Assembly: GCA_002437945.1 (NCBI GenBank)
Contig: DJSB01000033.1
Coordinates: 16,796 to 80,795, forward strand
DNA: 64,000 nt
DNA from: Christensenella sp. UBA6345
Lineage (GTDB): Bacteria > Bacillota > Clostridia > Christensenellales > UBA1242
Direction of reading: 5' to 3'
In this document: positions 3,693-54,597 of the stretch, one piece after another
Position numbering within the stretch: the stretch's first letter is position 1
Layout of the letters: every line of letters begins with the position of its first letter
The notes under the pieces: generated by a model
Told to the model about the DNA's origin: nothing
The model's database searches: none
What the model saw: only the letters and a program-made list of their open reading frames with translations
Translations under genes and position numbers: made by a program

Positions 3693-6600
3693 TTAACTAT
3701 TATATGTTAACGTGAAAGTTACAGTTGTAACATAGTTAGGATCACTAGTTCCAGTATAAACATAGCCATTTTCTGCTTTGTAATAAACATGGGCTTTGAA
3801 ACTAATCAAATGTAAATCATGAACTAAACTATTAAATCCAGAAATATCACAAGAAATTGTTGAGATAAATCCGGCATTAGTTTGAATTTCACTAAATACT
3901 ATAGTATTTTCTACATCAGTAGTACTTGTATCTTTATCTGCATACAAGCCATCTGATATAGGCTTAAATACAATATTTGTATTGCCAGTAACGGTTATTC
4001 TATCATCACCAGTTAGGTTAATTGTAAATTTATTGTCTACAACATTAGCAGAATAACTATCTTTAATATTGCTTACACCAGCATTCTTTACTAGTTTTAC
4101 ACTAAATTCTCTAATTAATGTATAACTAATAGCAGGATCTGTTTTTGATATAACAACAAGTTTAGCGGTATAATCCAAAATTATATCATTAAGTACTTGA
4201 TTACCCTTAACAACATATTTATATGTTGAAGAATCAATGCTATAGTATTGACTTTCAACCGCACCTATAGTTCTTAAATCAATTATGTCATTAGAATATG
4301 AGCCATTATTTTTCATATCCTTATTAACCATAATCACATATAGTGGGTCTTCTACAGAACTTTCTGTCTGCAATCTAGAATATTCTTCATAGCCCATTAC
4401 TGTACTATCAGAAAGTACCACATATGAAGGGTCTATTATAGTCGAATCATTTTGTTTTAATTCACTATATTTAACATAAGTTAATGCAAAACTTTCTTCA
4501 TATTTTAGTACTGTTCCATTGTTAAGAACAACACCTTCTAGTTGTATATCAACACCATCTTTTGTTAATTTAATATATTTTGAATAGTCAATTCCAGAAT
4601 TATTTTCGTATAAATATAGTTTAGTATTATATTCACTACTACTAAACGCGTTAGTAAATAGCAAGTTATCCATAGTTGTATCGCCAAAATTGTTGGTTAA
4701 GTTAACACTAATAACACTACTAGAAGTATTTGGATTGTACGATACTTTATTTTCATATAATCCAAATTCAGGATCATATGACGAAGTTAATACAGTCCCT
4801 TCTGAAGATATTGCTTTTGTAGATTCTTCTAATTGCCAATTATCAGAATCCTTTCCAACAATAACTTTGATATTAAATGCAGTAGTAATACTTCTATATA
4901 ATTGTTTACAATCAGGTACAATTTTTACAACAAATCTATAACTACCAGTATTATATTGAGCAGATTGAATCCATTGATTTACAATTGCTTTTTCTTCTTC
5001 ACTAATATTTGTTGAAACATCAGAAGAAGATACACTTTCAACTGTAATATTGGCATTATCAACTTGTATAGGAGTAGTAAGTGAAGCATTTTTATCTACA
5101 AAGAACACTTCCATAACATTATCTGTTATTGTTGCTCTAACCGAAAGAATAATAGGAACAAGTTTAATAGTATAGTTTTGAGTAATAGAACCTACTGACA
5201 CTCTTAAAGTAAATTCATACTTACTAGCATCATAAGTTTCAAGAGCATAACATGGGTCAATAATTAATTTACCTTCTTTTATTGATACATATTTACTTGA
5301 TGTTAACAATTCATATTGAAGTTGTACACCGTCAAGTATGTAATAATAATAAATGTCGTTGCCCTTTTGAATAGAAATTACATTCTTATCATTTAAATAT
5401 TCAGCCTTATTTAATGATTGTGAATCATCTCTCATAGTTCCTAATTGATATCCATAAGTAAACAATCCATCATATGAAGTTGAACTAGTTTTAGTAAAAT
5501 CTAGTACAATTTGATTATTGGCTGTATCATAAACAATACCATTATTGTTAGTTACATCAAAACCTTTTGGAGTAACTATAATAGTACCGCCATTACCTAT
5601 CGCAAAGTTCTTTTGGTCTGTATTAGGAATATAGTAGTTACCAGAGAATTGGTATCTAATATAAACAACTTGAGAAGCATTTACACCCGGTAATTTAACT
5701 GTTATTTTTGCAAGTAATGTATTATTATTAGAGATTGTTGGTGGTATGAAATAAATAGTACTATTATCATCACTTAAGTAATAATAATTGCTTGCATTTT
5801 CTACAGATTTGAAGTTGTTATATTCAACTTGACCATTCTTGGTATCACCTAAAGAAATCTCTACAGTGTATTGAATACCTTTAACAAGTTGAGGTTTTAG
5901 TAATGTGTTACTAGTAATCCAATCTTTTGTATTACCCATATCACTACCATTGCCAGTAAAGTATCCTAGGTTAAATAGGTCAATAATTTTAACTCCATTA
6001 GGAGCAGTTAGTCCATTACCAAAATTACCTATATCACTAACATTTTTAATGTTATCAATATTAAAACTTGAACCTGAACTAATATTATCGGTATTAAATA
6101 ATTGTGCAAAATATTCAGTTAAATCAATTGAATTTTCTGGTTTGTTTGGTGTTGGAGTACTACCATTTACATTATATTCAATAGAAGATAATCCAGGTAA
6201 AATTTTGATTTTAATCTTGTTATTTGGATTATAATAATCAACACCTTCATACAGTCTATTATTACTATCTTCCATATTAACTAATCCGCTACGTTTACCT
6301 GTTAAGTCATAGTAATAAGGAATTTCTATTGTTGTGGCTTCTGGCACACTTTTTAGAATTATACAATCAATTGTACCAGCACTAGTAACAATAGATTGAT
6401 ATTGATAATATAACTCTTCTTCTCCGCCTGCTTTAGTATTTAATAATACATTAGCCATATTGCTATAACTTCCACTAGCATTGGTTTGTTGACCTTGTGA
6501 CAAAGCAGTATATCCATTTTCGATTAACTTTAATCCACTTGTAGTATCTATTTCTATTACCGAACCAGCATATGCTGTAAATTCATTTACTACAGTGTTA

Positions 6601-9600
6601 TTATTATCATACTTAAATCCATCATTAGAAATATTAGGATTAATAACTAAATTAATAATTTCTTCATATGGATCAGCACTATCATTTCCCCAATCAGCAT
6701 AATAATTAGCGAATATCTTTGTAGATTGGTTAATTGCTTTTACAGTTACGTTAAATTGTCCTTTATCAACGTTAGTAGTAATAATTTCACTATTTTGTTT
6801 TGTATTACTTGAGTTAAGTTCATATGCATAGCCACGTACAGTAACATGCTTACTTCCTGTATCACTATAATTAAGTGCAGTACCACTATAATCTGTAGGA
6901 TCAATAATTTTATCACCTTCTCTACCATAGCCATTTAATGTTATGGTTCGATAGCCAATAGTATTTTCTTGAGCAGATGCAGAAGTCAAATTGTATGCAC
7001 TACCACCCTTACCCAAATAGTTACTATGTAAATCAATATCAGGAACTAAATTAATAGTATAAGTATAATAATAATTTTCGCCATTATAAGATTTTCTTAC
7101 ATAGAATGTTAATTTATATACCGAACCTACATTATTAGATTTTAATGTTACACTATCATTTGTAGTATCAAAAATTAAATTTAATTTTCTACTTTTATTA
7201 ACATACCTATATAATTTTGTATCAGAATCCTGTTCGTAAAGTACGGTATTAATGTCAATGTTATATGTACTATAACTATCAGTTTTTGGATCATCAATAC
7301 TATAAGTTTTTGCTACTGTTTTTACTTCATTGCCATCTAATACTTTTTCAGAATAAGCAATTTCTTTAATACCAACTTTAATGTCTGACATATTCTCGTT
7401 CGCTAATTGTAGCCATGCAGAACTATCAGAGTGACTTAAAATTGTTGTTTCATTGCCAGAAACGATACGATCAACATTTTCATTAACAGTAATCCTTAAG
7501 TCAGGGAATACTTTAATTTTTAATGTACTATAACTTTCTCCACTAACATGTTGGTTTGTCCATATTCTAAATGAAACTAGAACACCTTTTTCTTCACTGG
7601 TATCATCAAATTTAACATTCAATTGATTGCCTGTATTATAGATTATCTCATTATTAGAAGAAACTCTATAACTGCTTCTATTATCTAAAACAGTCAATCC
7701 TAAATTATCAGTATTGTTATATTTGAATACATATTTAAGTCCATCAATGTTATCGTCACTTAAACTTACATAGTCTAATAAATTGTAAGTATTATTACCA
7801 TATACTTCAATCACTTCACTAGGAGTATTAACTGATACAGTTGGTAAGTTTTTATAAATTTCAAAATTATAATCAATATATGCACCATTAAATAATGTTG
7901 CTCTAACAACTAAAGAATCAGTTGTTTTTTCTGGTGCTTTTGTTATTACTAATGTTCTATTGTTTTCAATAGTACCAAATTCAGAGCCTGTAATAATACT
8001 AAAGGTAATATATTTTCCATTAGTTATATCAACTAACTTTGTAATATCCAAGTCTTCGTTATTTTCGTCTTTATATGTTAATTGATATTGTGTAGAACTT
8101 CCGTCTACTTTAGTAATTGTAACTAATGAATTTCCAATATATGTTTGGATTCTGTTATTGTCATTAATATAGTTACTTAATAAATCCACTCTAGAATTAT
8201 TCATTACTTTTTCAGAAGAATCTACTAATGGATAATTAGTTACTAATTTATAGTTAGGTTTAAGAATAAACGCATATTCATATGGAGCATTAACTGGGTT
8301 AATCTCGGTATCAATTAATAACTTATATCTTACATCGTCATTAACCGAATTCTTTATTCTTAATACCAACTTTTGTAATGAACCATCTTTATTCTTTGTA
8401 ATTATAATCTCACAATTATCATCATCGGTTACAGAGAAATATCCATCGCCATCATATCTTGTTAAAACATATTGATTAAACAATTGTCCCAATAGTTCGT
8501 TATTATCAACACCACGCAATGAGATTATATTATCTAATGGAGAAGTACTATCAAACAAAGTTATATCATAATTACCTAATTCAATTATGCCATCATAGCC
8601 ACTCTCGCCGATTTTTCTATCACAATTGTAATTCTGGAAATACTGTATTTTACTTTCTTCATTAAAATACTCATTTTCATAAGCGTTAATATGATATTCT
8701 ACACTAGCACTTACATTAACATATATAGTACTACTATTTTTATCTCCAGCAATATAGTCATCAGATGCTACACTGTTGAATTTAACTACAATAGGTATAT
8801 TTAAGTTGCTAGAAATACTACGAGTACGCATAATACCACTCTTTATAGCAGTATCAGCATCTCCTGGGAACAATGCTGTATAGTTTTTATCATCAGTAGG
8901 ATAATCATATTGCATTGTTACTAATTTACCAATTACTTTAACAGTATCTTCTATAGATAAGGTTTCATTGGTTGTTTTATTTTTAATCTTAATGAAACTA
9001 TCTACTATATTACCATTACCACCACTAAATTTAGTTTCATCTTGATATGTTTCATTTTTAAAGAAATTATAATCCAAACCAGATGATAATTTTAATGGAG
9101 TAGAAGTTTTATCTTTAATAGCAGTATTAAGAGTTAATTCATAACCTGGTTCTACCACCATAGCAATAACTGTATTATCTATTTTTTCTATAACTTCTTC
9201 TTTATATCTTAAAATGATTTGTTCATTACCATCTGAATCAGTGGTTTTTACTTCATAAGGTATATAATATTTCAATTTCAAATTTACAGGTTTGCTATTT
9301 AATACTTCCCTTGGTTTAATTTCTGTAGTTAATTTAACAGTTTTTGGATAAGTAGTAGTATCATTTTCATCGTGTGTAAACTCGTTAGGGTCATATACAT
9401 TAATGGTTTCTACGTCATCAACCAACATATCTGCAAATCCACTAGTAGAAGCATCTATTTCAAAACTTGTTTTTAAGTCAATAGTTTCTTTTGTAACAGT
9501 ACCATCGCCATTATCTGTTTGTTTTGCTTGTTTAACTGTAATAATTTTACTTAAATCTATCACACCTTCATGTTCACTTGTAGTAGATGTTACTATATTA

Positions 9601-12600
9601 CCAGCAGGTTTATCAATAGTTACCGAACTCTTTACATTAATATAATAGAATCCTTGAGTGTCGCCAAATGGAGAAGTAATAGTAATCTTAACTCTAGTAT
9701 CTGCGGTTAAGTACGATGCTTGTACTCTTAATTTACCATTAATAGTTTGAGTCTTTTTAGCACTTAATAAATTACCATCTGCACCTATAAATGATAGTGC
9801 ATTAACATTATCAATTTCGTATGTACAATATGCTTGAATTTCATCATAACCTGCCAATGTAGCAGTGATTCGCTTTGTAGTAGTAATATTATTAGGAGCA
9901 TTAGCAGTTTCATAGGTTTTAGCAATATCATTGTAAATATAATAATTGCTATTATTACCATCTTTTAGTTTGAATTCTTCAAATAAATCAATTGGTGTAC
10001 CAGCAGTTAATTCTTGAATATTTTCATTGTTACTATTGTTAAGTACATAACCTTTAGTGCTTTCATTGATATTTACTTCAGAATAAGAACTAAATACAAC
10101 ATCATTTTGATATAGAACTATTACGGTAGAAAGTGTATGTTTATATATAAAACCAGAATTGGTTTTGTATACACCAAGAGTACAAGTTGCTCTTAATTTA
10201 ACACCATCTTTAGTACCTTTAATAGGTTTTAATACACCCGCAATTAAAGTTCCGTCATTAACTGACGAATTGGTTACAACATCCAAATAATCAGTTGGTT
10301 TATCCGTAGGACTAGGTGGATTACCTTCAAAGTCCACTGTCCAATTAATAGAAATCAATTCTGTATCAAGAGATCGTTTATCTGTAAATGGTTTTAAATA
10401 ATTTTGGATATATTCAGCATTTCTATAAGCCTTATCAATTTTTGCATTAAATTGATTATCGTCAACACCTTTTTGTATATCAAAATCATAGTTAACATTA
10501 ATATAGAATTGATTATCTGAATATCTTCCATTTTCGAATTGTTCTTTCCATATAATAGTATGTGACTGACCACCCACTTCTAGTGATCCTACTCTAGGAG
10601 CAATCTTGTGTTCTGGAGTATTAACTTCAGTTTCTAGCACGAATGAATCAATTGCAGCGTAGTTAACTATCATATTTACTGAAGAACGGCTTGAGTTGAA
10701 TACAGAAGTAAGTTCGCTATTAGAACTAGCAATTGCTTTTAAGTCAAAGCCGACTGGAGTATAGTTGGCAGGAGCAGATTTATTAACTTTAGCAGTAACC
10801 CCCAAGTCAAACCATACTTTTTCTTCCATATAACTAATTTTTAAACTAATATCTGTAGAATTAGCCACAAATGAATTAGGAGTAATTTGTAATCCAGATT
10901 GAGCAAGTTTCATGGCTTCGGTTAAATTGGTTTTATAATCAATAACAGTACCATTAACATAATTCTTATTACCAGCATCAAAAGTTCCGCTAGTATTTAA
11001 GTAGAATGGTGTAGCAACCATCTTATACTCTTCACCTGCTAACAATTGAATAGTGTCAGTAGTAGAAGCATCGCCTGTATCACTTACGTTACGCAATGTA
11101 TATTGTTCTTCGCCATCTATTGTGTTAACAGTATAGAAATTTAGTTTTTCTAGATGAGTATAAATATTGATTGATATTTTGTTGGATTGTGCGGCTATTT
11201 GATATACTCCGTTATAGCCTTCTTCCCCTTCACTAACACCATTAACATCAATAGGTCTGCCTAAATAGTCTGTTTTGACAACAGCGGCAAACACTTCAAG
11301 TGAATCCCCATTAGTACTGTTAATCGCTTCTAGTGTACATTTTCCGCCAACATAATAATCTATCTCGTAAGCATTAATCTTGGTAGTATTATATGGCATT
11401 TGTTTTAGAATTGGAGTACCGCCATCAGCACAAAGTTTAACTTTAAAGAAACTGGTATCTGTAGCACCATCTTTAGTTTTTGCACTAGTATCTGTAACAA
11501 AGAACTTAACTAAAGTATATGTAGGAGTTTTTCCATCAGGTCCTGTTAACTCGTATCTTGTAGAATCTAACTCTTGTCTATAACTACGTCCGCCAACATT
11601 AGTGGTATTAGTAATCATAGTAGTATCAAGAGCATTTTGTGGATTGGTTTGAGAAGTAAACAATCTTAAATCTGAAACAATAACTTCAGTTGCTTCTACA
11701 CCAATATCTACAAATTTATCGCCTGGTGTATAATAATCTAATTCAGTTTTTACTTTTGACGAAGGTATATAGAAACGTAATCTATAATTACCTTTTAATC
11801 TATCTTCATTAGAAATAGGATTAATACATCTTATTTTCCATACTGGATTATCTATAGATGTAGGATTTTCAATTTCAAATATATTAGATAAATCAAAATC
11901 AAAAGTACTTGTACTTGTTTCACTCTTATTCTTGATAGGTAAAATACGAATTTCGTTAAGTCTATATTTTAAATTTTCTGGTGTGAAATCTTCTTGATTG
12001 GTAGGAATTAATGATAATCCAAAAGTACTCTGTAATTCATTTACATTATATTGATTCAAATCACCATGTGGTTCAAATTCAACTTTTGAAGTAACTGTCG
12101 ACTTAACTTCTTTAATATCTATCTCTTCAATATTGAAAATAGATTTACTTTCAACATACATATAGAAGTATGCAGCATTCTTTTGTGCACTAATTGTATC
12201 ATTAATCTTGATATAATTTTCTCCAGCCGAATTAGTCTGTGTAATTGCGGTAATGAACGCTGCACCATTTTCATACTCTAATGTGCCATTAATAGTATTA
12301 TAGTAAGGACGAGTATCTGCTTTAATATAATCTTGATATTCTGAAATATAATTGCTTAAATCAGTATAATACTCTTCACGTTTAAAATTGTTTTCAGCAT
12401 CATAATATTTTGTATCATTTTCATCTACGTACTCATCTTGCATTGAGTATGTACGTAATGCTTTAGCAGAAATTATTACTGGTGCTCTAGCACTTGTTAC
12501 TGCTTTGGCTGTATATTCAATAAATTTATGTTTGCTTAATCTTTTACCATGGCAAGTAGAACCTAAATAATTACCATTGGCATCTTTGAATGGTCCTTTG

Positions 12601-13283
12601 TGTCCGTGTGCAATGTAATCCGGACAATAGAATTCTTCTTTTGGAGTGCCTGCAGTTAATATCTGTAAAGCATTAGGGTCTCCACTTTTTATGGTTATGT
12701 CTTTATAAGATTCTAACAAACTAGTTTCATTACCAGTGTTAGGATTTAATGCTAAATTAGGATTGGTAAATACATATAACCCAAAACTATTAGAACCAGC
12801 ATTAATCAATTTTTCTTCATCAGCACCATCATAGTCAGATGCAAGTACTAATCCATTGTTAGGAATAGGAACATCAACTAAAATCTTCAAGTTAGTGGAC
12901 GAAACAACAAGTTGTGTTTTTGCTTGGATAACAACTTCACCGCCAATATTATTGCCATTGGCATCTTTTTTAAGTTTAATAGTAAATGGTTCACCAGCCT
13001 TAACTGTGCTAGGAATTTCAACTATATTGCTACCATCTGCATAAACCAATTTAAGTTCGACATCTAACTGATTGGCGTTGGCAGGCAAAAAGTTAATGGT
13101 TGTAGTATAATCATCAACCACTCTGACTTTATCAGTTTCCCAAGAAAGTGCGGTAATATTAATTTTTTTATTACTGAACACACCAGTAATAGCCGCTATA
13201 CCCGCAGCGACACCTATTAAGGCAATCAAACTACCGAGTACAATACCAATAATTTTTAATGCTTTTTTCATTTGTTTCTCCAC
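3693..13283 (-). CDS. Giant (3196 aa) N-terminally membrane-anchored surface protein, function unknown
   Basis: Single uninterrupted ORF with a GGAG RBS. The N-terminal hydrophobic helix is ALKIIGIVLGSLIALIGVAAGIAAITGVF. The rest is N/T/S/Y/I/V-rich and looks beta-rich, with very few Cys. I saw no LPXTG, choline-binding or S-layer motif and no obvious long internal repeats. Confidence 0.85.
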   Translation of the reverse strand: MEKQMKKALKIIGIVLGSLIALIGVAAGIAAITGVFSNKKINITALSWETDKVRVVDDYTTTINFLPANANQLDVELKLVYADGSNIVEIPSTVKAGEPFTIKLKKDANGNNIGGEVVIQAKTQLVVSSTNLKILVDVPIPNNGLVLASDYDGADEEKLINAGSNSFGLYVFTNPNLALNPNTGNETSLLESYKDITIKSGDPNALQILTAGTPKEEFYCPDYIAHGHKGPFKDANGNYLGSTCHGKRLSKHKFIEYTAKAVTSARAPVIISAKALRTYSMQDEYVDENDTKYYDAENNFKREEYYTDLSNYISEYQDYIKADTRPYYNTINGTLEYENGAAFITAITQTNSAGENYIKINDTISAQKNAAYFYMYVESKSIFNIEEIDIKEVKSTVTSKVEFEPHGDLNQYNVNELQSTFGLSLIPTNQEDFTPENLKYRLNEIRILPIKNKSETSTSTFDFDLSNIFEIENPTSIDNPVWKIRCINPISNEDRLKGNYRLRFYIPSSKVKTELDYYTPGDKFVDIGVEATEVIVSDLRLFTSQTNPQNALDTTMITNTTNVGGRSYRQELDSTRYELTGPDGKTPTYTLVKFFVTDTSAKTKDGATDTSFFKVKLCADGGTPILKQMPYNTTKINAYEIDYYVGGKCTLEAINSTNGDSLEVFAAVVKTDYLGRPIDVNGVSEGEEGYNGVYQIAAQSNKISINIYTHLEKLNFYTVNTIDGEEQYTLRNVSDTGDASTTDTIQLLAGEEYKMVATPFYLNTSGTFDAGNKNYVNGTVIDYKTNLTEAMKLAQSGLQITPNSFVANSTDISLKISYMEEKVWFDLGVTAKVNKSAPANYTPVGFDLKAIASSNSELTSVFNSSRSSVNMIVNYAAIDSFVLETEVNTPEHKIAPRVGSLEVGGQSHTIIWKEQFENGRYSDNQFYINVNYDFDIQKGVDDNQFNAKIDKAYRNAEYIQNYLKPFTDKRSLDTELISINWTVDFEGNPPSPTDKPTDYLDVVTNSSVNDGTLIAGVLKPIKGTKDGVKLRATCTLGVYKTNSGFIYKHTLSTVIVLYQNDVVFSSYSEVNINESTKGYVLNNSNNENIQELTAGTPIDLFEEFKLKDGNNSNYYIYNDIAKTYETANAPNNITTTKRITATLAGYDEIQAYCTYEIDNVNALSFIGADGNLLSAKKTQTINGKLRVQASYLTADTRVKITITSPFGDTQGFYYINVKSSVTIDKPAGNIVTSTTSEHEGVIDLSKIITVKQAKQTDNGDGTVTKETIDLKTSFEIDASTSGFADMLVDDVETINVYDPNEFTHDENDTTTYPKTVKLTTEIKPREVLNSKPVNLKLKYYIPYEVKTTDSDGNEQIILRYKEEVIEKIDNTVIAMVVEPGYELTLNTAIKDKTSTPLKLSSGLDYNFFKNETYQDETKFSGGNGNIVDSFIKIKNKTTNETLSIEDTVKVIGKLVTMQYDYPTDDKNYTALFPGDADTAIKSGIMRTRSISSNLNIPIVVKFNSVASDDYIAGDKNSSTIYVNVSASVEYHINAYENEYFNEESKIQYFQNYNCDRKIGESGYDGIIELGNYDITLFDSTSPLDNIISLRGVDNNELLGQLFNQYVLTRYDGDGYFSVTDDDNCEIIITKNKDGSLQKLVLRIKNSVNDDVRYKLLIDTEINPVNAPYEYAFILKPNYKLVTNYPLVDSSEKVMNNSRVDLLSNYINDNNRIQTYIGNSLVTITKVDGSSTQYQLTYKDENNEDLDITKLVDITNGKYITFSIITGSEFGTIENNRTLVITKAPEKTTDSLVVRATLFNGAYIDYNFEIYKNLPTVSVNTPSEVIEVYGNNTYNLLDYVSLSDDNIDGLKYVFKYNNTDNLGLTVLDNRSSYRVSSNNEIIYNTGNQLNVKFDDTSEEKGVLVSFRIWTNQHVSGESYSTLKIKVFPDLRITVNENVDRIVSGNETTILSHSDSSAWLQLANENMSDIKVGIKEIAYSEKVLDGNEVKTVAKTYSIDDPKTDSYSTYNIDINTVLYEQDSDTKLYRYVNKSRKLNLIFDTTNDSVTLKSNNVGSVYKLTFYVRKSYNGENYYYTYTINLVPDIDLHSNYLGKGGSAYNLTSASAQENTIGYRTITLNGYGREGDKIIDPTDYSGTALNYSDTGSKHVTVRGYAYELNSSNTKQNSEIITTNVDKGQFNVTVKAINQSTKIFANYYADWGNDSADPYEEIINLVINPNISNDGFKYDNNNTVVNEFTAYAGSVIEIDTTSGLKLIENGYTALSQGQQTNASGSYSNMANVLLNTKAGGEEELYYQYQSIVTSAGTIDCIILKSVPEATTIEIPYYYDLTGKRSGLVNMEDSNNRLYEGVDYYNPNNKIKIKILPGLSSIEYNVNGSTPTPNKPENSIDLTEYFAQLFNTDNISSGSSFNIDNIKNVSDIGNFGNGLTAPNGVKIIDLFNLGYFTGNGSDMGNTKDWITSNTLLKPQLVKGIQYTVEISLGDTKNGQVEYNNFKSVENASNYYYLSDDNSTIYFIPPTISNNNTLLAKITVKLPGVNASQVVYIRYQFSGNYYIPNTDQKNFAIGNGGTIIVTPKGFDVTNNNGIVYDTANNQIVLDFTKTSSTSYDGLFTYGYQLGTMRDDSQSLNKAEYLNDKNVISIQKGNDIYYYYILDGVQLQYELLTSSKYVSIKEGKLIIDPCYALETYDASKYEFTLRVSVGSITQNYTIKLVPIILSVRATITDNVMEVFFVDKNASLTTPIQVDNANITVESVSSSDVSTNISEEEKAIVNQWIQSAQYNTGSYRFVVKIVPDCKQLYRSITTAFNIKVIVGKDSDNWQLEESTKAISSEGTVLTSSYDPEFGLYENKVSYNPNTSSSVISVNLTNNFGDTTMDNLLFTNAFSSSEYNTKLYLYENNSGIDYSKYIKLTKDGVDIQLEGVVLNNGTVLKYEESFALTYVKYSELKQNDSTIIDPSYVVLSDSTVMGYEEYSRLQTESSVEDPLYVIMVNKDMKNNGSYSNDIIDLRTIGAVESQYYSIDSSTYKYVVKGNQVLNDIILDYTAKLVVISKTDPAISYTLIREFSVKLVKNAGVSNIKDSYSANVVDNKFTINLTGDDRITVTGNTNIVFKPISDGLYADKDTSTTDVENTIVFSEIQTNAGFISTISCDISGFNSLVHDLHLISFKAHVYYKAENGYVYTGTSDPNYVTTVTFTLTYNS

Positions 13284-13436
13284 TTATTTATTAAACAAAC
13301 TAAAGTAAATTATTATTTAATTTAATATGTGCTACTAACAGAATATTATTAATAGCACAACCAAATTTTTCGGTTATCAAATATCTAACTATATCTATAT
13401 ACTTGTAATAGACCATCATAAATCAACTAAAAGCGA

Positions 13437-13532
13437 GCGTAGCAATATTTTCGGATAACTGATGGCTATCAAATTTAAGTATGGCATTTCGGAACGAAAT
13501 GCTGTGTCCGTATGGACACAATAGACGTAGTC
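13437..13532. repeat. 96-bp direct repeat, copy 1 (identical to 13860-13955)
   Basis: A base-by-base comparison of the two stretches shows 96/96 identity. The period is 423 bp. Confidence 0.95.
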
Positions 13533-13859
13533 ATAACTTTTTAATCACTTAAATTATATTATCTGAAGTTGTCGGCAAGCAGTCCGAAGGAATATTTGCC
13601 AGCAACTGATGTTTATTCAAACTATGATGCCACGAGTTATCGTGGAATTGCAATTTGCAATTTGATTTATGAACATAGTGAATAAAGCAACATCATATTG
13701 TTTATACCAAAGAAGTTTATACAAGCGACACGCAGTGTCATTTGATATAAACTGACGCAGAATCAAATTTAAGTATGGATTTAAAGATGATACACTAATA
13801 AATATATCCTTTTTTGACATCTTCTTAAATTATATTGCCGGAAGTTAGACGAAAGCAGT

Positions 13860-13955
13860 GCGTAGCAATATTTTCGGATAACTGATGGCTATCAAATTTA
13901 AGTATGGCATTTCGGAACGAAATGCTGTGTCCGTATGGACACAATAGACGTAGTC
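13860..13955. repeat. 96-bp direct repeat, copy 2
   Basis: Identical to 13437-13532. Confidence 0.95.
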
Positions 13956-13967
13956 TATCATACTTAA

Positions 13968-13996
13968 ATTATACTTTTCTCCATAATAATTGTCAA
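13968..13996 (-). promoter_or_regulatory. Consensus SigA-type promoter TTGACA-17 nt-TATAAT
   Basis: The minus strand reads aagTTGACAattattatggagaaaagTATAATttaagta, with -35 at 13991-13996 and -10 at 13968-13973. AT-rich sequence lies upstream. Confidence 0.75.
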
Positions 13997-14094
13997 ACTT
14001 AAAACATAATATATAGCCATATATAAAAGTTTTTGTAATAAGATAATATATATAATATTTATCACAATTTACATATAAAAATAGTTTAGAAAAA

Positions 14095-14142
14095 AACCAA
14101 AAAATAAAAAAAGTTTTAAAGCAAATATTTTACTTTAAAACT
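14095..14142 (-). terminator. Rho-independent terminator of the 14152-14775 gene
   Basis: Perfect 10-bp stem AGTTTTAAAG/CTTTAAAACT (14112-14121 / 14133-14142), followed on the minus strand by a long T-rich run. Confidence 0.8.
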
Positions 14143-14151
14143 TTAACAAAT

Positions 14152-14775
14152 TTATCTAGTTTTTTCTAATCTATTATATTTTTCCATTAAGATTTTATTT
14201 TCGATTTTCTTTTGATTGATAATTTTTTGAGACTCTTCATCTATTTCCATTTTTGGAACTATCATCTCATAAAATTCTGGTCCTTTTTTAGAAAATTCAA
14301 AAAGTATACGACTTACAATACCAAAAGAAATACCGCTATGATCCTGACTACAGAAAATTTTCTTTGCTTCTTTAAAATCTGGATTACTATCTAAAGATTC
14401 CATAATTTTTAAAGCATCTTCAAGGTCTTGTCCATGATACATTCCTTTCGCTCTTGCTTCTACACATTTTGCCCAATCTTTTTGTCTTTCAGGATAAATA
14501 ATCTTATTACCACGTTCAATCCATTGTGGTATTTTATCCAAAGCATCTTTATTCTCTTTTTCTCTTTCTTGTATCATTTCTTCAACTTGTTTATCATATT
14601 CTGCTTTAGTACAACCCATTACTGCTTGATAAGCAGAATCCATTGTTACTGTTTCAGAATCCAACTTTTGTCCATTAAACTCACAAGTTGCTTTAATTCC
14701 TTTAGCACGTAAATCTATTAAACATTCTACAGTTTCATCTAATGTGTGCTTTGGTTTAATTTGTCCTAAATCCAT
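14152..14775 (-). CDS. Hypothetical cytoplasmic protein (207 aa)
   Basis: ORF with a GGAGG RBS, charged and helical-looking. I recognise no family. Confidence 0.6.
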   Translation of the reverse strand: MDLGQIKPKHTLDETVECLIDLRAKGIKATCEFNGQKLDSETVTMDSAYQAVMGCTKAEYDKQVEEMIQEREKENKDALDKIPQWIERGNKIIYPERQKDWAKCVEARAKGMYHGQDLEDALKIMESLDSNPDFKEAKKIFCSQDHSGISFGIVSRILFEFSKKGPEFYEMIVPKMEIDEESQKIINQKKIENKILMEKYNRLEKTR

Positions 14776-14890
14776 AAATATTTATCCTCCACCAATTATA
14801 TTAATTATAAATATTATAGCATACATTATATGGAATTTCAATACATTAATTTTTTCAATATAAACAATTATTATATTAATTGTTAAATAA

Positions 14891-17800
14891 TTATTCTCCA
14901 GTTGTATATTGTAAATCTAAAGTATTATCATAATTAATTTTTGATTTTTCATCATCAGATACTATCCCTTTACAACAATAAATACCTATAACACTATAAT
15001 TAATATCACCAAATAAATTAATATTTTTAATAGTAATATTGTCAATAATTGTGCCATAGTTTCTGTACATAATGCCACCAACTTCCAACTTATTGACATT
15101 AACTTCACTATCTTTAGTAATATTAATATCTAAATCAATATTAGAAATCGTAGAGTCTTTTCTTCCAGAATATACAATTCCACCAATATGTTGTCTACTT
15201 TGACAACAAGTTAGATTCAAAGTAATATCTACGTCGTTTGTAATCTTATTATTATCAAAAACTATACCAGCAAACTTATTAAATCCGCTAGATATAAGCG
15301 TACCTGTAATATTGCTTATAGTATTATTATTGGTAGACGCAATTGATGAAAAACAAATTTTAAAATTATCAGATTTATTATTAAAGATTATTTCTGTATT
15401 ATTAAATGTTACATTTTTAATATTACCATTATTAGTTATACATAATAATGAAGAATTATATCCCGTATTAATATCTTCCAAAAGTACCGTCATATTGTAA
15501 TTATCAAATATAACATTATCTATTGTTCCATAGTTATCATTTACTATTAATGTAAAATCATTATTGGCATATGTATTTTCAGTAATTGATGTACTTCCCG
15601 ATATCATCATATTTTTCACAACTGCATTAATACCTAATTTATTAAAAATAGTACGTTTAAGATTAATTAATTTTTTATTATTAAAATCAATTTCACCATT
15701 ATAATTATCTACAAGATAATCATTGGTTACATTATTAAAATCCAAATCTGCAGTGACAATATAATTTTTATCAGGTTCAATATTGATTAAATCATTAACA
15801 GAAGAAATTGAATAAATTTCTTTATATTCTACAGTATATACTACACTATCAAGTATTTTATCATTACATATAGCACTGATGGTAACATTACCACAGCCTA
15901 CAAAATTAACTACACTATCTTGTACATATGCGATTTCTGTATTACTACTAACAATTGTAAATGTATCTGTACATTTATATTGATCATATTTAAGAGTTAT
16001 CTTATAATCAAGTAATATATTAGATATAAAGAAATAATTAATTGTAGCATCTTCATTTAAAAAGTCAAAATCAACTATTGGATTAGTCACAACAATGTTC
16101 ACAACATATGTGATAGACATATCACAATATTGTACTTTGATAGTATATTTACCTAGTGAATCAAATATATATTTAGAATTGTTAACAATTGCTTTATCAT
16201 TAACAAATATAATAGTTTCGTAGTCATTTAATTCAATTTGATTGCTGAATACACTACCTGTTAAATAAATACTTGAATTTAATTCACAAGTTAACTCTTG
16301 ATTATCTGATACTATTTTATCATCAAAATATGCGCAGATGTGAGTAGGAACATACTTAACATTAACTGTTAAATTCTTGATAACTTCACCACATTTTAAA
16401 CTAATTATTGCAATACCCTTGCATTTAGCAATGATTGTGTTATCAGTAATTTCTATTATGTCACTATCGCAAACAATTTCTACATTCTTATCTATTGCAT
16501 AGATAGGCTCAACATCATAATTAAGTTGATACGTATCTAATCCTTTATCCCCATTGATATATAGGTCAATGGTTTCATTATCAACATTAATTGAAGATAC
16601 CTTAATTGGTTCGACATTAATTTTATATGAAATACTATAGTTTGTAATATCATTACTTACTATATTTAATGTACTAATACCCAATTTCTTTGCATATAGT
16701 TTATTTTCTTTTACTTCTACACTATCGCCAACAATAGTATATTTAAGGCAATTAGGTTTAACATCAACACCTTTATGACTTAAATTAATATCGGCATATA
16801 CCAACTCATTTTCGCTGATATCAAGATTATAATAATCTTCTGATGGCAAATATAAAGTATAGACATTATCTTTTGGTAATAATTCCTGTTCATTAAACAA
16901 TGAAAAATTAATACCTGTTATTGTATTATAGACATTGACAGTAAAATCACTAGTTGCATTTTTATTAGAAATATCACAGATATTATTATAAGTAGCAGTA
17001 ATATTATAATTACCAGTTGTATTAAAAGTAATTTCAAATTTATTATCACTAATATATTTATAATTGCAATTATTAAATGTAATCAATGAATAATCATTTA
17101 ATGAAGTATTTATTGTAGCGATATATGTTGTTTTTGTATAATATTCTTCACAATTATTGTTATCTAGGCTTAACTCAAAATCTATTGTATTAATAGGTTC
17201 TTTTACTATTACATTAATTGATTTTGTTAATTCGCCTGTTTTGGATAACACTTTTATAGTAACATTACATTCGCCTGATTTAATTGCAGTAAAAGTGCCA
17301 TCAACAATAGAAAGTGTATCGTTAGATATAGTTATATCTCTAGATAAATTATAATCACTCGGAACAACATCATAAGTAAAATTGCCAGTATCGCCTACAA
17401 ACATAGTTACACTATCATTAACTTTAAAATTATTAAATTTAATATTAGTAATATCTTCAGCATAATGATTATCAACTACTGTAACTGAAAAACTTTTACT
17501 AATATGCACGTGGTCAGCAGTTGATACTTCTACACTAACAGTATCTTGGCCTACTTTTATAGGTACAATTTCGCCAGTTATATAGTTATATTCAACACAA
17601 TCATTAACACTTGTAACAGTAATGTCACAATTATAATCCAAAGGTAATATAGTTAGATTATTGTAAGCATTTTCTTTTAAATCTACAATAATATTATCTT
17701 TAACAAAACTTAAATCTGTAGCAAATATTGGCTTTACACTTACTGTAAAAGTTGTGGTTGTAGTTTTAAATGTATTATTACCAATCATAATAGATGCGGT

Positions 17801-18112
17801 TAATTTGAACGAACCTGTTTTATTAAATACAATCTTATCATTAATTATTGTCGCAACACTAGTATCATCTATACTATATGTTGGTCGAACAGTGGCATTA
17901 CTTGGCAACACTGTAATATTAATATTATTAAGTGCTATTTCTTCGCCAACGAAATAATTATGCTTATCATTATCAAATTTAATATCACTAGCATAAACGA
18001 TATTTGATTCAGCCAAGGCAAGTCCTGACGAATTATCTCCTTTGTTAGATGAACCACAACCGGTCAAAAGAAATATTGCACAAACTATAAATAAATATTT
18101 AAAATATCTCAT
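14891..18112 (-). CDS. Large lipoprotein with repeated Ig-like (Big_2-type) modules and a C-terminal repetitive GLUG-like/beta-helix-like region
   Basis: Signal peptide plus lipobox (FLLTGC). There are at least 6 recurrences of the Big_2-like pattern (e.g. SVATIINDKIVFNKTGSFKLTASI, LSIVDGTFTAIKSGECNVTIKV, IEITDNTIIAKCKGIAIISLKC). The last ~300 aa carry repeated N-I-x-N/IGG-containing segments. Confidence 0.7.
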   Translation of the reverse strand: MRYFKYLFIVCAIFLLTGCGSSNKGDNSSGLALAESNIVYASDIKFDNDKHNYFVGEEIALNNINITVLPSNATVRPTYSIDDTSVATIINDKIVFNKTGSFKLTASIMIGNNTFKTTTTTFTVSVKPIFATDLSFVKDNIIVDLKENAYNNLTILPLDYNCDITVTSVNDCVEYNYITGEIVPIKVGQDTVSVEVSTADHVHISKSFSVTVVDNHYAEDITNIKFNNFKVNDSVTMFVGDTGNFTYDVVPSDYNLSRDITISNDTLSIVDGTFTAIKSGECNVTIKVLSKTGELTKSINVIVKEPINTIDFELSLDNNNCEEYYTKTTYIATINTSLNDYSLITFNNCNYKYISDNKFEITFNTTGNYNITATYNNICDISNKNATSDFTVNVYNTITGINFSLFNEQELLPKDNVYTLYLPSEDYYNLDISENELVYADINLSHKGVDVKPNCLKYTIVGDSVEVKENKLYAKKLGISTLNIVSNDITNYSISYKINVEPIKVSSINVDNETIDLYINGDKGLDTYQLNYDVEPIYAIDKNVEIVCDSDIIEITDNTIIAKCKGIAIISLKCGEVIKNLTVNVKYVPTHICAYFDDKIVSDNQELTCELNSSIYLTGSVFSNQIELNDYETIIFVNDKAIVNNSKYIFDSLGKYTIKVQYCDMSITYVVNIVVTNPIVDFDFLNEDATINYFFISNILLDYKITLKYDQYKCTDTFTIVSSNTEIAYVQDSVVNFVGCGNVTISAICNDKILDSVVYTVEYKEIYSISSVNDLINIEPDKNYIVTADLDFNNVTNDYLVDNYNGEIDFNNKKLINLKRTIFNKLGINAVVKNMMISGSTSITENTYANNDFTLIVNDNYGTIDNVIFDNYNMTVLLEDINTGYNSSLLCITNNGNIKNVTFNNTEIIFNNKSDNFKICFSSIASTNNNTISNITGTLISSGFNKFAGIVFDNNKITNDVDITLNLTCCQSRQHIGGIVYSGRKDSTISNIDLDINITKDSEVNVNKLEVGGIMYRNYGTIIDNITIKNINLFGDINYSVIGIYCCKGIVSDDEKSKINYDNTLDLQYTTGE

Positions 18113-52363: not shown

Positions 52364-52465
52364 ATGCAAATATAATAAGTACTTATATTTTATTTATAGA
52401 TTAAATAATAAAGTAATGATTAAAACTATACATAAACTATGTGATGTTGATTTACTTACAATGCT

Positions 52466-52590
52466 CATAAATCAAATTGCTATCAAAATTCCACGATAAA
52501 TCGTGGCATCACAGTTTGAATAAACATCAGTTATACGAAAATATTGCTTCGCACTGCTTTCGTCTAACTTCCGATAATATAAATATAATG
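52466..52590 (+). ncRNA. Second-locus copy of the beta hairpin plus alpha hairpin module family seen at 13.4-14.0 kb
   Basis: ~70 nt are nearly identical to the reverse complement of 13612-13672, including the CCACGA-loop-TCGTGG hairpin at 52491-52506. An alpha hairpin at 52525-52571 follows, with the same architecture. A terminator lies ~80 nt downstream on the + strand. Confidence 0.55.
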
Positions 52591-53607: not shown

Positions 53608-53824
53608 TAAAAATCCTCCTTTAAACTTTTCGTGTTTGTTTTATAAAAACTTTATTTTTTCGACTAATATGTCGAATAATGTGTGAGGATTTAAAAAAAC
53701 TCTTTCGCCACATAGAGTAAACGAAAGAGTTTTGAATATACATATAAAAAACTATTTGTTTACCTCGGCAAGATTTACTTTATACTTGCTGTCTTTGGCA
53801 AGACTTCTTTTAAAAACCGATAGT
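53608..53824 (-). promoter_or_regulatory. rplJ 5' leader with an internal intrinsic terminator (L10-leader-type attenuator)
   Basis: The leader contains a CUUGCcaaagacaGCAAG hairpin. It also has a strong stem, AAACTCTTTCG...CGAAAGAGTTT plus T7, at 53693-53733, upstream of the RBS. Firmicutes L10 leaders are known to act by attenuation. Assignment to the Rfam L10 leader has not been verified. Confidence 0.55.
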
Positions 53825-53931: not shown

Positions 53932-54597
53932 ATGGTTAAAAGGGTTATAGCAGGATTATTTATTTTAATATGTTCAGTCGCTTTAACGTGTGGTTGTGAT
54001 GACAACAAAAACAAAAAACAACTCGCATCAATTGATGATTCTGTGGGTAATTTAACCATTTTTTCTTTAACACAATCTAATAAAGATACTCTGCCCTTGC
54101 TATTGAATCTAGGACATAGTTTCATAACTATAGAGAACACTTCTTCCGATAATATGACAATAGGCAACTACGAACTTACACCTAATGAAACTATATGTAT
54201 AGGAACATGGAGTATATCCAATCATTTTGGTGTATGGTACAATGTAGAGTCCAATTATAATAGCAAATATAATCGTTATGATGGTAGAATCTCACTTACA
54301 AAAGAAATCTCTAGTAATGACATAACCACTATTACTACCTTTATTGCAAAACATAACTACTGGAATCCATTTAGAAATTGTTCATATTTTGCATTAAATC
54401 TGTGGAATTCAGTGGCAGATAGCAATGAAAAACTTAAAAAACCAATTATTTACTCTCCTACCCATGTTACACAAGAAATTAAAAAGTTTAACAATTATGA
54501 ATATAACAGACCGCTGCCTACAAATAGCAATATGGGATATTATTCTAACGCAAAATTTGTAAGTTTTAATATGAAAGGAGAAGATAAGTATGTTTAG
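53932..54597 (+). CDS. Putative lipoprotein with a permuted papain-like (His-first, NC..F) motif pair
   Basis: Signal peptide MVKRVIAGLFILICSVALTCGC. It has LGHSFITIEN and a later YWNPFRNCSYFALNLWN, arranged as in PPPDE/LRAT-type permuted NlpC/P60 enzymes. The start is set at ATG 53932 (AGGAA RBS). Confidence 0.45.
   Translation: MVKRVIAGLFILICSVALTCGCDDNKNKKQLASIDDSVGNLTIFSLTQSNKDTLPLLLNLGHSFITIENTSSDNMTIGNYELTPNETICIGTWSISNHFGVWYNVESNYNSKYNRYDGRISLTKEISSNDITTITTFIAKHNYWNPFRNCSYFALNLWNSVADSNEKLKKPIIYSPTHVTQEIKKFNNYEYNRPLPTNSNMGYYSNAKFVSFNMKGEDKYV

Follow-up and report, generated by a model that had tools for sequence, protein, structure and literature searches.

Tandem folded non-coding repeats, probably mobile, lie behind the promoter of a giant gene in an uncultured gut Clostridia lineage

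The promoter, the giant gene and the repeat array between them

We analyzed a 64,000-nucleotide (nt) stretch of DNA from Christensenella sp. UBA6345 (assembly GCA_002437945.1, contig DJSB01000033.1, positions 16,796 to 80,795; hereafter the window), in which an array of folded repeat units lies on the minus strand between a consensus promoter and the start of a giant gene. A first-pass annotation of the same sequence had reported a consensus promoter followed by hairpin modules, and the promoter is as described: a sigma-70 site (13968..13996, minus strand) with TTGACA at 13996-13991, a 17-nt spacer and TATAAT at 13973-13968, which matches the consensus at 12/12 positions and is the sole perfect site within 13000-14400. 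Its conservation in all the relatives that were examined marks it as genuine. The giant gene has its start codon, an ATG, at 13271-13269, preceded by the ribosome-binding site (RBS) GGAG, and encodes 3192 amino acids, as called in the conspecific contigs L090 and L091 (L-numbers denote contigs of conspecific strains and related lineages); the start had been placed at 13283, where the codon is in fact a GTG. About 690 nt separate the promoter from this start, and the earlier statement that the gap holds no credible open reading frame (ORF) agrees with the gene calls of L090 and L091, which place no gene there. The upstream limit of the intergenic region is an AT-rich terminator hairpin of the upstream 207-amino-acid ORF (14110..14144, minus strand), an inverted repeat with 16-nt arms that are 94% complementary and followed by a T run. 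When folded as RNA, the 676-nt leader reaches -187.5 kcal/mol, compared with -128.9 +/- 7.2 for dinucleotide shuffles (z = -8.2).

Most of the leader is built from repeat units of ~110-165 nt, each composed of a junction domain, a linker, a hairpin called alpha and a tail, the 47-nt hairpin being one part only. A strict alpha pattern, for which 0 matches are expected by chance in the window, is found at 13841-13887 (minus strand), 13565-13611 (minus strand) and 52525-52571 (plus strand), the last being a further copy at 52.5 kb that had already been pointed out. At least four alpha copies had been claimed for the array; two are strict matches and one is a divergent 46-nt subtype at 13712-13757, but the fourth, at ~13433-13464, is truncated and lies within a 107-nt direct repeat (13426-13532 = 13849-13955, 95% identical).

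The unit next to the promoter, U1 (T-type; 13824..13965, minus strand), contains a perfect four-way junction (13901-13965) whose stem AAGUAUG/CAUACUU closes three hairpins, followed by the linker CAUACUUAAAUUUGAUAGC and then by alpha1 (13841-13887); the unit's tail, ACTTCCGGCAATAT, occupies 13832-13845 and runs into ATAAT, and the minimum free energy of U1 is -45.4 kcal/mol (z ~ -6). U2 (13712..13823, minus strand), delimited by sequence and fold, consists of the hairpin AAGAUG...CAUCUU, the linker CAUACUUAAAUUUGAU and the divergent alpha2 (13712-13757), and the block of alpha2 and U3 is 82% identical over 224 nt to an insertion in two sister strains (L120/L123) that is described below. U3 (beta-type; 13548..13711, minus strand) starts with ATAAAC at its 5' end and has a P0/P1 closing stem, three hairpins, the linker AGUUUGAAUAAA, alpha3 (13565-13611) and the tail ACTTCAGATAATAT (13556-13569). 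U4 (T-type; 13426..13547, minus strand) is a duplicate of U1, recognized by the 107-nt direct repeat and truncated within its alpha hairpin; it is decaying, and substitutions between strains concentrate in its broken 3' part. A covariance model made from beta-type units matches U3 at 13547-13714 with 188 bits and also matches U1 over its full length (64.7 bits, E = 2e-11), and the array can therefore be written as U1-U2-U3-truncated U4, head to tail. The same model gives 177.8 bits for a solitary beta-type unit on the plus strand (52423..52589), located between the convergent genes rplI and rplL, with its alpha hairpin at 52525-52571 and the tail ACTTCCGATAATAT at 52567-52580, then ATAAAT. This unit is 82% identical to U3 (13548-13711) over ~160 nt. 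U3 includes the hairpin CCACGA-UAAC-UCGUGG at 13629-13644; the CCACGA hairpin had been thought to be interleaved through the array, but the array has a single copy, and one more is present at 52.5 kb.

The 5' end of a unit, ATAAAC or TTTAAG, pairs with the internal linker (P0/P1) and closes a four-way junction of three hairpins. In the fold common to seven units, the closing stem is formed by 5' UAAAC..UGUGAUG with CAUCACA-GUUUG, and after the junction come a single-stranded linker whose sequence is conserved (AGUUUGAAUAAACAUCAG, or CUUAAAUUUGAU...CAUCAG), then alpha, which is an irregular hairpin, and finally the tail ACTTCCGATAAT. ATAAA-type direct repeats flank the units, and ATAA(A/T) separates the units inside arrays; the leftmost motif of this type in the leader is the -10 box itself, and the -10 hexamer is at the same time the left junction of the first unit. 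The first-pass annotation had every unit ending in one common sequence; this has to be corrected, since UAUAAUUUAAG occurs only three times in the leader and the first of these is again the -10 box. On the 3' side of the array, the remainder of the leader (13272..13425, minus strand) carries the hairpin GUGCUAUUAA...UUAGUAGCAC and the RBS GGAG. Two terminator-like calls, at 13944-13925 and 13521-13502, both correspond to the middle hairpin of a four-way junction, and we rejected them as terminators because their "T tract" is the next stem.

The units have no coding capacity of their own: they share no conserved ORF with a start codon and an RBS, and the compensatory changes in the stems disrupt every reading frame. 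A type I toxin-antitoxin or small-ORF system was rejected, as no conserved short hydrophobic ORF with an RBS is present. The motif had not been assignable to any known RNA class, and Rfam 15 likewise gives no match at E <= 10 in 13200-14250; a K-turn, a hammerhead, group II domain V and an integron attC were rejected by comparison with their consensus motifs together with this empty Rfam result. The only Rfam family that reaches its gathering score in the window is the ribosomal protein L10 leader (RF00557, 64.7 bits; 53684-53816, minus strand), upstream of rplJ-rplL.

Filled and empty sites in strains and relatives

The orthologous loci of relatives were retrieved by using RpoA homologues as anchors. 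Conspecific strains carry the same array with 97-99% identity. In a sister lineage, whose RpoA is 98-99% identical, the leader has no units: the identical promoter is followed by TTTAAGTATGATAGACT, and the promoter and the next 22 nt (TATAATTTAAGTATGATAGACT) are shared with the window; beyond these the sequence is AT-rich and unrelated for ~230 nt, up to the RBS-proximal hairpin, which is again shared. The leader positions that match the leaders of the sister lineage are 664-730 (RBS-proximal) and 1-49, and nothing else. Lineages with RpoA 96%, 94% and 90% identical have a TTGACA promoter, the giant gene and module-free gaps of 246-292 nt. Searches by BLAST with 7-nt words and with the covariance model detected no unit in the orthologous leaders of these four related lineages. 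By this comparison the promoter is ancestral and lies outside the repeat, and the array is not an ancestral leader of the giant gene. The suggestion that the modules form a dedicated cis-acting leader, for antitermination or as a multi-site protein platform, is thus not sustained, as four lineages keep the promoter and the giant gene and do without the modules.

Among close strains, both filled and empty alleles were recovered at three loci, and units are not limited to 5' leaders: one site lies between the convergent genes rplI and rplL, another follows the stop codon of a 1082-amino-acid gene, and a third comes after a DUF1540 gene. At the first locus, the rplL-rplI spacer measures 397 nt when filled and 247-251 nt when empty. 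The unit is present in the window, L109, L111, L113, L115-117 and L126, and absent from L110, L112, L114, L124, L125, L127-129 and L133, although the RplL or DUF1540 proteins of these contigs are identical. L090 and L125 represent one strain that is empty at rplL-rplI, yet its leader array is 99% identical to that of the window. At the second locus, a ~310-nt block of two units, lying upstream of the giant-gene promoter, directly follows the stop codon of the 1082-amino-acid gene in the sister strains L120 and L123, and the site is empty in L119, L121, L122, L105 and L106. The third is a unit 11 nt past the DUF1540 gene, seen in L110 only, where the contig edge ends it. Since a given site can hold a unit in one strain and none in a close relative, the units are mobile, or at the least undergo precise insertion and deletion. 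The first-pass annotation had raised the ends of a known insertion sequence or MITE (miniature inverted-repeat transposable element) as an alternative to its own view; in substance the modules do behave as a mobile repeat, but not as one of these known elements.

At the filled junctions a unit starts with ATAAAC, and ATAAA(T) follows it, whereas the empty sites carry TTAAAT, ATAAAA/CTAAAT and TTAGAT. Both junctions thus show (A/T)TAAA, of which the empty sites have a single copy. Because the left copy reads ATAAAC at every target, it may belong to the element. The junction repeat could be either a 5-bp duplication or a shared crossover core.

Among sister strains, the terminator after the 1082-amino-acid gene exists in two forms, a short hairpin (GGACAACATAATATTGTTGTC) and one interrupted by a ~30-nt GC-rich stem-loop (AAAGTGAACCCCGCAAGGGTCAC...), as seen at L105/L106 ~14880-14945 and L120 ~11685-11750 compared with L119 ~11385-11410; this is a second small insertion or deletion at the same spot. 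In L131 (1350-3314), a 654-amino-acid metallophosphatase gene lies between the DUF1540 and Zn-peptidase genes, where other strains have a 137-nt spacer.

Further copies came from translated sequence. One antisense frame stays open across a unit, and a profile of its translation retrieves ~20 "hypothetical proteins" on other contigs. These spurious proteins (P0121-P0146) include MBQ3494992.1 from a Clostridia metagenome-assembled genome, and several of them cover two tandem units. From copy to copy, the translations hardly change in the linker (TDVYSNCD) or the tail (LYYRK) but vary where stems are encoded, and the tail block is kept family-wide, appearing as LYYRK, IIGS or LSEV in the translations. 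The family is therefore multi-copy and dispersed, with copies at two loci of the window, at two others in relatives and on ~20 further contigs, and it was seen only in ENA, Logan and NCBI assemblies of the host clade. Scanning 185,579 GTDB species genomes with the alpha pattern gave 89 matches, all of them chance matches (best stem score 9/13), and the scan of JGI metagenomes gave three chance matches in coding-like sequence. Three IMG/VR scans yielded nothing, or matches that the covariance model rejected, and blastn of the array against phage and plasmid (PLSDB) collections found no match. Many of the contigs with spurious proteins are 500-900 nt long, fitting repeats that break short-read assemblies.

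Covariation of the stems and the dif-like tail

Compensatory stem changes had been noticed between the alpha copies, and they extend over the units as a whole. In an alignment of seven units (2 from the window, 1 from a conspecific strain and 4 from the sister lineage), a small sample from which the structure itself was derived, both sides change in 15/47 pairs, and pairing holds in 90.9% of cells. None of 500 shuffles equals this, and slid partners give at most 4 covarying pairs. Three new alpha variants, available as translations only, are compatible with all 17 pairs of the hairpin, of which 7-8 necessarily differ from the reference; residue shuffles equal this compatibility in 0.5-1% of trials. 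The stems have diverged through compensatory changes, whereas linker and tail are kept constant. By this alignment the stems are under selection for pairing. The first-pass annotation went further and saw selection on RNA structure; the selection for pairing stands, but that the units act as RNA is an assumption. Covariation alone cannot separate functional RNAs from mobile DNA whose movement depends on structure.

Several features of the structure favor DNA or are neutral between DNA and RNA. The helices are almost purely Watson-Crick, with 1-4 G-U among ~45 pairs per unit. Raw folding energies favor the antisense strand, and strand-specific shuffles give similar z-scores on both strands. Loops are mostly 3-4 nt long and no unpaired linker bases interrupt the junction of U1, features that suit DNA hairpins as well as RNA. 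A transcription start site (TSS) ~7 nt past the -10 box, near 13961, would leave the closing stem of U1 without the greater part of its 5' strand in the RNA. Of the substitutions that distinguish strains in U1-U3, 7/7 are at unpaired positions, in a structure that has 70% of its positions paired (p = 1.8e-4); because they avoid the stems, the resident copies look constrained in place.

A different pattern of change is seen between the two sister strains with the tandem block. Comparing L120 (11374-11682) with L123 (11379-11686), the first-hairpin versions GAUUUAC/GUAAAUC and GUAUUGU/ACAACAC are swapped between the tandem units, and the CCACGA/UCGUGG hairpin is CCGUUA/UAACGG in one of the two strains. 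One hairpin carries three double changes within flanks that are otherwise near-identical. These swaps suggest exchange among family members, by gene conversion or recombination, rather than point mutation.

In Firmicutes dif, the XerC-binding arm together with the first bases of the central region has the very sequence of the tail ACTTCCGATAATAT; examples of such dif sites are ACTTCCGATAATATATATTATGTAAACT of Macrococcus and ACTTCCGATAATAG... of Desulforudis (PMC3025954 supplement). We scored this likeness with a position weight matrix (PWM) of 15 Firmicutes dif sites from the same supplement, the host's own dif and xer genes being outside the available sequence. At the 3' ends of the 52.5-kb, L120 and L123 units, ACTTCCGATAATAT reaches the maximum left-half score, 20.5, compared with at most 17.6 in 20 shuffled windows, and the tails of U1 (14.8) and U3 (14.6) rank within the top 3 and the top 5 of 128,000 positions, respectively. 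The chance of a 14-nt exact match to the XerC arm at a unit end is < 5e-7 per position. In addition, the flanking ATAAA falls at the position of the dif central region, and a hypothetical circle junction, in which the 3' end of a unit is joined to its 5' end (ACTTCCGATAATATAAACTATGTGATGT), gives a 28-mer that scores 22.8.

Elsewhere in the window, the second-best match to the XerC arm (17.4) is TCTTCCGATAATAT at 54142-54155 (plus strand), inside a 231-amino-acid ORF without a Pfam domain. It is probably a chance match, because its score equals the best of the shuffled windows and no XerD-like arm comes after it.

Origin of the array and its likeness to known systems

We consider it probable, at roughly 70%, that four non-coding folded mobile repeats, arranged head to tail and with the last one truncated, moved in behind the -10 box in one species, ahead of the giant gene's native leader. 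That the units are mobile repeats at all we hold with high confidence. As for the mechanism, the one exact half-site points to a Xer-like tyrosine recombinase, which would move the units into A/T-rich sites that share an ATAAA overlap. Each insertion would recreate an adjacent target, as Xer-exploiting elements do at dif, so that arrays could grow; a new target beside each insertion would explain both the tandem stacking and the TATAAT-like repetition after each unit. The conserved fold would be needed for recombination, possibly in the form of folded single-stranded DNA, as in the attP of CTX phage and in integron attC. In the giant-gene leader, the -10 box region (TATAAT-TTAAG) may have served as the target, in which case the promoter, left intact, would now transcribe ~560 nt of repeat as a 5' untranslated region (UTR). 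An effect on the giant gene, if there is any, would have been acquired secondarily.

Several observations weigh against this picture. The XerD half is weak, scoring 2.3 in the hypothetical circle junction (p ~0.003) and -1.0 at the right junction of L120, with p ~0.003-0.01 for the XerD halves, and the empty target sites bear no likeness to dif (PWM scores of -32 to -36). The Xer-exploiting elements known so far use dif itself for integration (PMC3442271, PMC3025954). No recombinase or transposase was found linked to the units. Since (A/T)TAAA is common to element ends and targets, the junctions can be placed only to within a few bases, and just two loci are present in the 64-kb window, in a sample without a complete genome. 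The array is fixed in all six conspecific strains seen, and the 7/7 substitutions off the stems, unexpected for decaying junk, hint that the resident copies are constrained. Lastly, 4/4 independent loci are co-oriented with the upstream gene, which fits a role as RNA too.

These last points are also what speaks for the two readings in which the units work as RNA. If the modules had evolved as a dedicated cis-regulatory leader that controls the 9.6-kb gene, by processive antitermination or by the binding or titration of an RNA-binding protein at the alpha hairpins, one would understand why a consensus promoter runs straight into the array, why the leader is so exceptionally structured (z = -8.2), why strain substitutions lie off the stems, and why the array is fixed at 97-99% identity in six strains, including those in which the 207-amino-acid gene is deleted. 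We nevertheless find this highly improbable, because four related lineages with the same promoter type have short, unstructured, module-free leaders before the orthologous giant gene, and because units occur where no long gene follows, namely in the gap of the convergent pair rplI-rplL and in the 3' regions of two more genes, and because in sister strains a block even lies upstream of the giant-gene promoter. Transcripts that begin near 13961 would, moreover, lack the bulk of the 5' strand in the closing stem of U1, and Rfam contains no antitermination or leader family that matches. It is easier to imagine, though still unlikely, that the units are a family of mobile or duplicating modules that act once transcribed, in UTRs or as processed small RNAs, for instance by hindering decay or by binding a protein through the constant linker between variable helices, and that the compensatory changes reflect this function rather than the needs of transposition. 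The co-orientation of the 4/4 loci, in a 5' UTR or just past a stop codon, agrees with this, as do the conservation of the single-stranded linker while the stems vary and the position of the single-nucleotide polymorphisms off the stems in resident copies; in B. cereus, bcr-type repeats are often in transcribed UTRs, and one type correlates with the mRNA decay rate (PMC3446304). At n = 4 loci, however, the co-orientation is non-significant (p ~0.06-0.12), and the 52.5-kb copy sits between two terminators. The near-pure Watson-Crick helices (1-4 G-U of ~45 pairs per unit), the equally good folding of the complementary strand once composition is controlled, the mostly 3-4-nt loops and the U1 junction without unpaired bases would all suit DNA.

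Movement as single-stranded DNA need not involve Xer. The units could derive from palindrome-associated elements of the IS200/IS605 type or from repetitive extragenic palindromic (REP) sequences moved by REP-associated tyrosine transposases (RAYT), that is, by HUH/Y1 transposition, with the likeness to dif being coincidental. They lack terminal inverted repeats, have subterminal hairpins with compensatory changes, are inserted beside a short A/T-rich motif and have no convincing long target duplication, all of which would fit such a mechanism. On the other hand, the hairpins at the left and right ends are unrelated in sequence and shape, while the ends of IS200/IS605 carry similar hairpins, and the GTAG or CGTC tags of REP families (PMC3733652) are not seen. 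The two window copies also lie on opposite strands under a uniform GC skew, whereas such elements are usually strand-biased, a weak point at n = 2. Given that 14 nt at the very end of the unit match the XerC arm of dif exactly (< 5e-7 per position), we judge this origin very unlikely.

The Xer-dependent insertion of mobile repeats that we favor can be put in a sharper form, in which the units are gene-less elements of ~150 nt with a XerC half-site ("mini-IMEXs", after the integrative mobile elements exploiting Xer, IMEX), whose folded single strand hijacks Xer or a related recombinase at A/T-rich pseudo-sites and thereby seeds arrays. We offer this form as a speculation that is doubtful at present. 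If true, it would make the units the first Xer-driven MITE-like repeat, and it would give a concrete mechanism for the unexplained TTTAT-associated mobility of the Bacillus bcr1-type repeats; our literature search found no published link between small MITE-like repeats and dif-like ends. IMEX such as the CTX, TLC and VGJ phages and the gonococcal genetic island likewise have a dif-like half-site at the element end and encode no integrase, their crossover region is likewise the flanking repeat, and successive insertions likewise make head-to-tail arrays. The attP of CTX phage is a folded single strand of ~150 nt (PMC3442271; background in PMC3025954). Known IMEX, however, are kilobase-sized and gene-bearing and occupy the single chromosomal dif, whereas our units are 150 bp long, gene-less and present at at least 4 different sites that are not dif-like, and only their XerC arm is convincing.

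The closest analogue is bcr1, together with bcr2 and bcr3. bcr1 is described (PMC3184786, PMC6542083, PMC6199540) as a non-coding repeat of ~155 bp in the B. cereus group, with TTTAT 5-bp direct repeats and strain-variable positions, present in dozens of intergenic or UTR copies, which has a multi-stem fold with compensatory changes and for which site-specific recombination has been proposed. Size (143-168 nt for our units), strain-variable positions, a compensatory multi-stem fold and TTTAT, which is ATAAA on the other strand, are thus common to both. The host clade differs, being uncultured gut Clostridia here and not the B. cereus group; bcr1 has two stem-loops where our units have a four-way junction and a hairpin, and here several unit subtypes combine in tandem. 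Sequence similarity to bcr1 is not detectable: the array has no match in PLSDB, which includes B. cereus plasmids reported to carry bcr1, although this check is indirect. To our knowledge, a dif-like XerC arm has not been reported at the end of bcr1; the B. cereus dif we take to be ACTGCCTATAATATATATTATGTTAACT. We conclude that the structured mobile repeat family is new while its kind, bcr1-like, is known. The exact XerC arm at the element boundary provides a testable mechanism for bcr1-like repeats flanked by TTTAT/ATAAA, whose movement has been an open question since ~2004.

Other small repeats resemble the units in part. The BOX elements of Streptococcus pneumoniae and the mosaics of REP sequences (bacterial interspersed mosaic elements, BIME) are likewise modular and strongly folding, with few module types in variable number, and they are co-transcribed with neighboring genes and can alter their expression (PMC3184786). 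Their modules, sizes and sequences are different, REP being 20-40-bp GC-rich palindromes with GTAG or CGTC and BOX having the form boxA-boxB(n)-boxC, and none of them has a dif-like end or ATAAA repeats. MITEs (Correia/NEMIS, RUP, ERIC) are likewise small, non-autonomous and insertion-polymorphic; they fold into long hairpins when transcribed and can supply or separate promoter elements. Unlike these, our units have no terminal inverted repeats but asymmetric ends (ATAAAC-TATGTGATG versus ACTTCCGATAAT), the end sequences ATAAACTATGTGATG and ACTTCCGATAATATAAA not being inverted copies of each other, and their stems covary, whereas the stems of MITEs are conserved as transposase-binding sequence. 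Integron attC arrays also have a promoter followed by a co-oriented array that is conserved in structure and variable in sequence, and attC sites are folded single strands recognized by a tyrosine recombinase. However, our units share no R''/R' core sites (RYYYAAC/GTTRRRY) and have no cassettes between them. RYYYAAC fits one alpha copy only (GTCTAAC), not alpha2 or alpha3, and no integrase gene or attI adjoins the array, the neighboring 207- and 1073-amino-acid ORFs having no Pfam domain. Integrons are very rare in Firmicutes.

In practical terms, a false lead has been removed, since a covarying "RNA array" behind a perfect promoter does not here amount to a new class of leader for giant genes. 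What is found instead is a new structured mobile repeat family in an abundant uncultured lineage of human-gut Clostridia, whose copies make UTRs and promoter-proximal regions differ between strains, interrupt assemblies and give rise to spurious protein entries in public databases.

The genes around the array have features of their own. The giant protein (window 3693-13271, minus strand), of 2997-3196 amino acids among relatives, has an N-terminal hydrophobic segment and no Pfam domain, and its gene is located 3' of rpoA-rplQ in every relative examined (L096-L108, L119-L123). Its usual companion is a protein of 1060-1082 amino acids without a domain (1073 amino acids in the window, 14891-18112, minus strand), and the two form a conserved, uncharacterized pair beside ribosomal protein operons. 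The 207-amino-acid ORF (14152-14775, minus strand), which separates the 1073-amino-acid gene from the array, is without a Pfam domain. None of the related lineages has it, and it is mostly deleted, with ~540 nt gone, in conspecific strains that bear the array (L134-L136, 11331-12411). The host, which RpoA matches place in an uncultured Clostridia/Firmicutes lineage of the gut, is a spore-former (SpoVT). In the gene tables of L090-L108, the host clade has a uL30 (122-149 amino acids; for example L090 4325-4711) and a uL24 (162-171 amino acids; for example L090 1166-1654) that are much longer than usual and vary in length between lineages.

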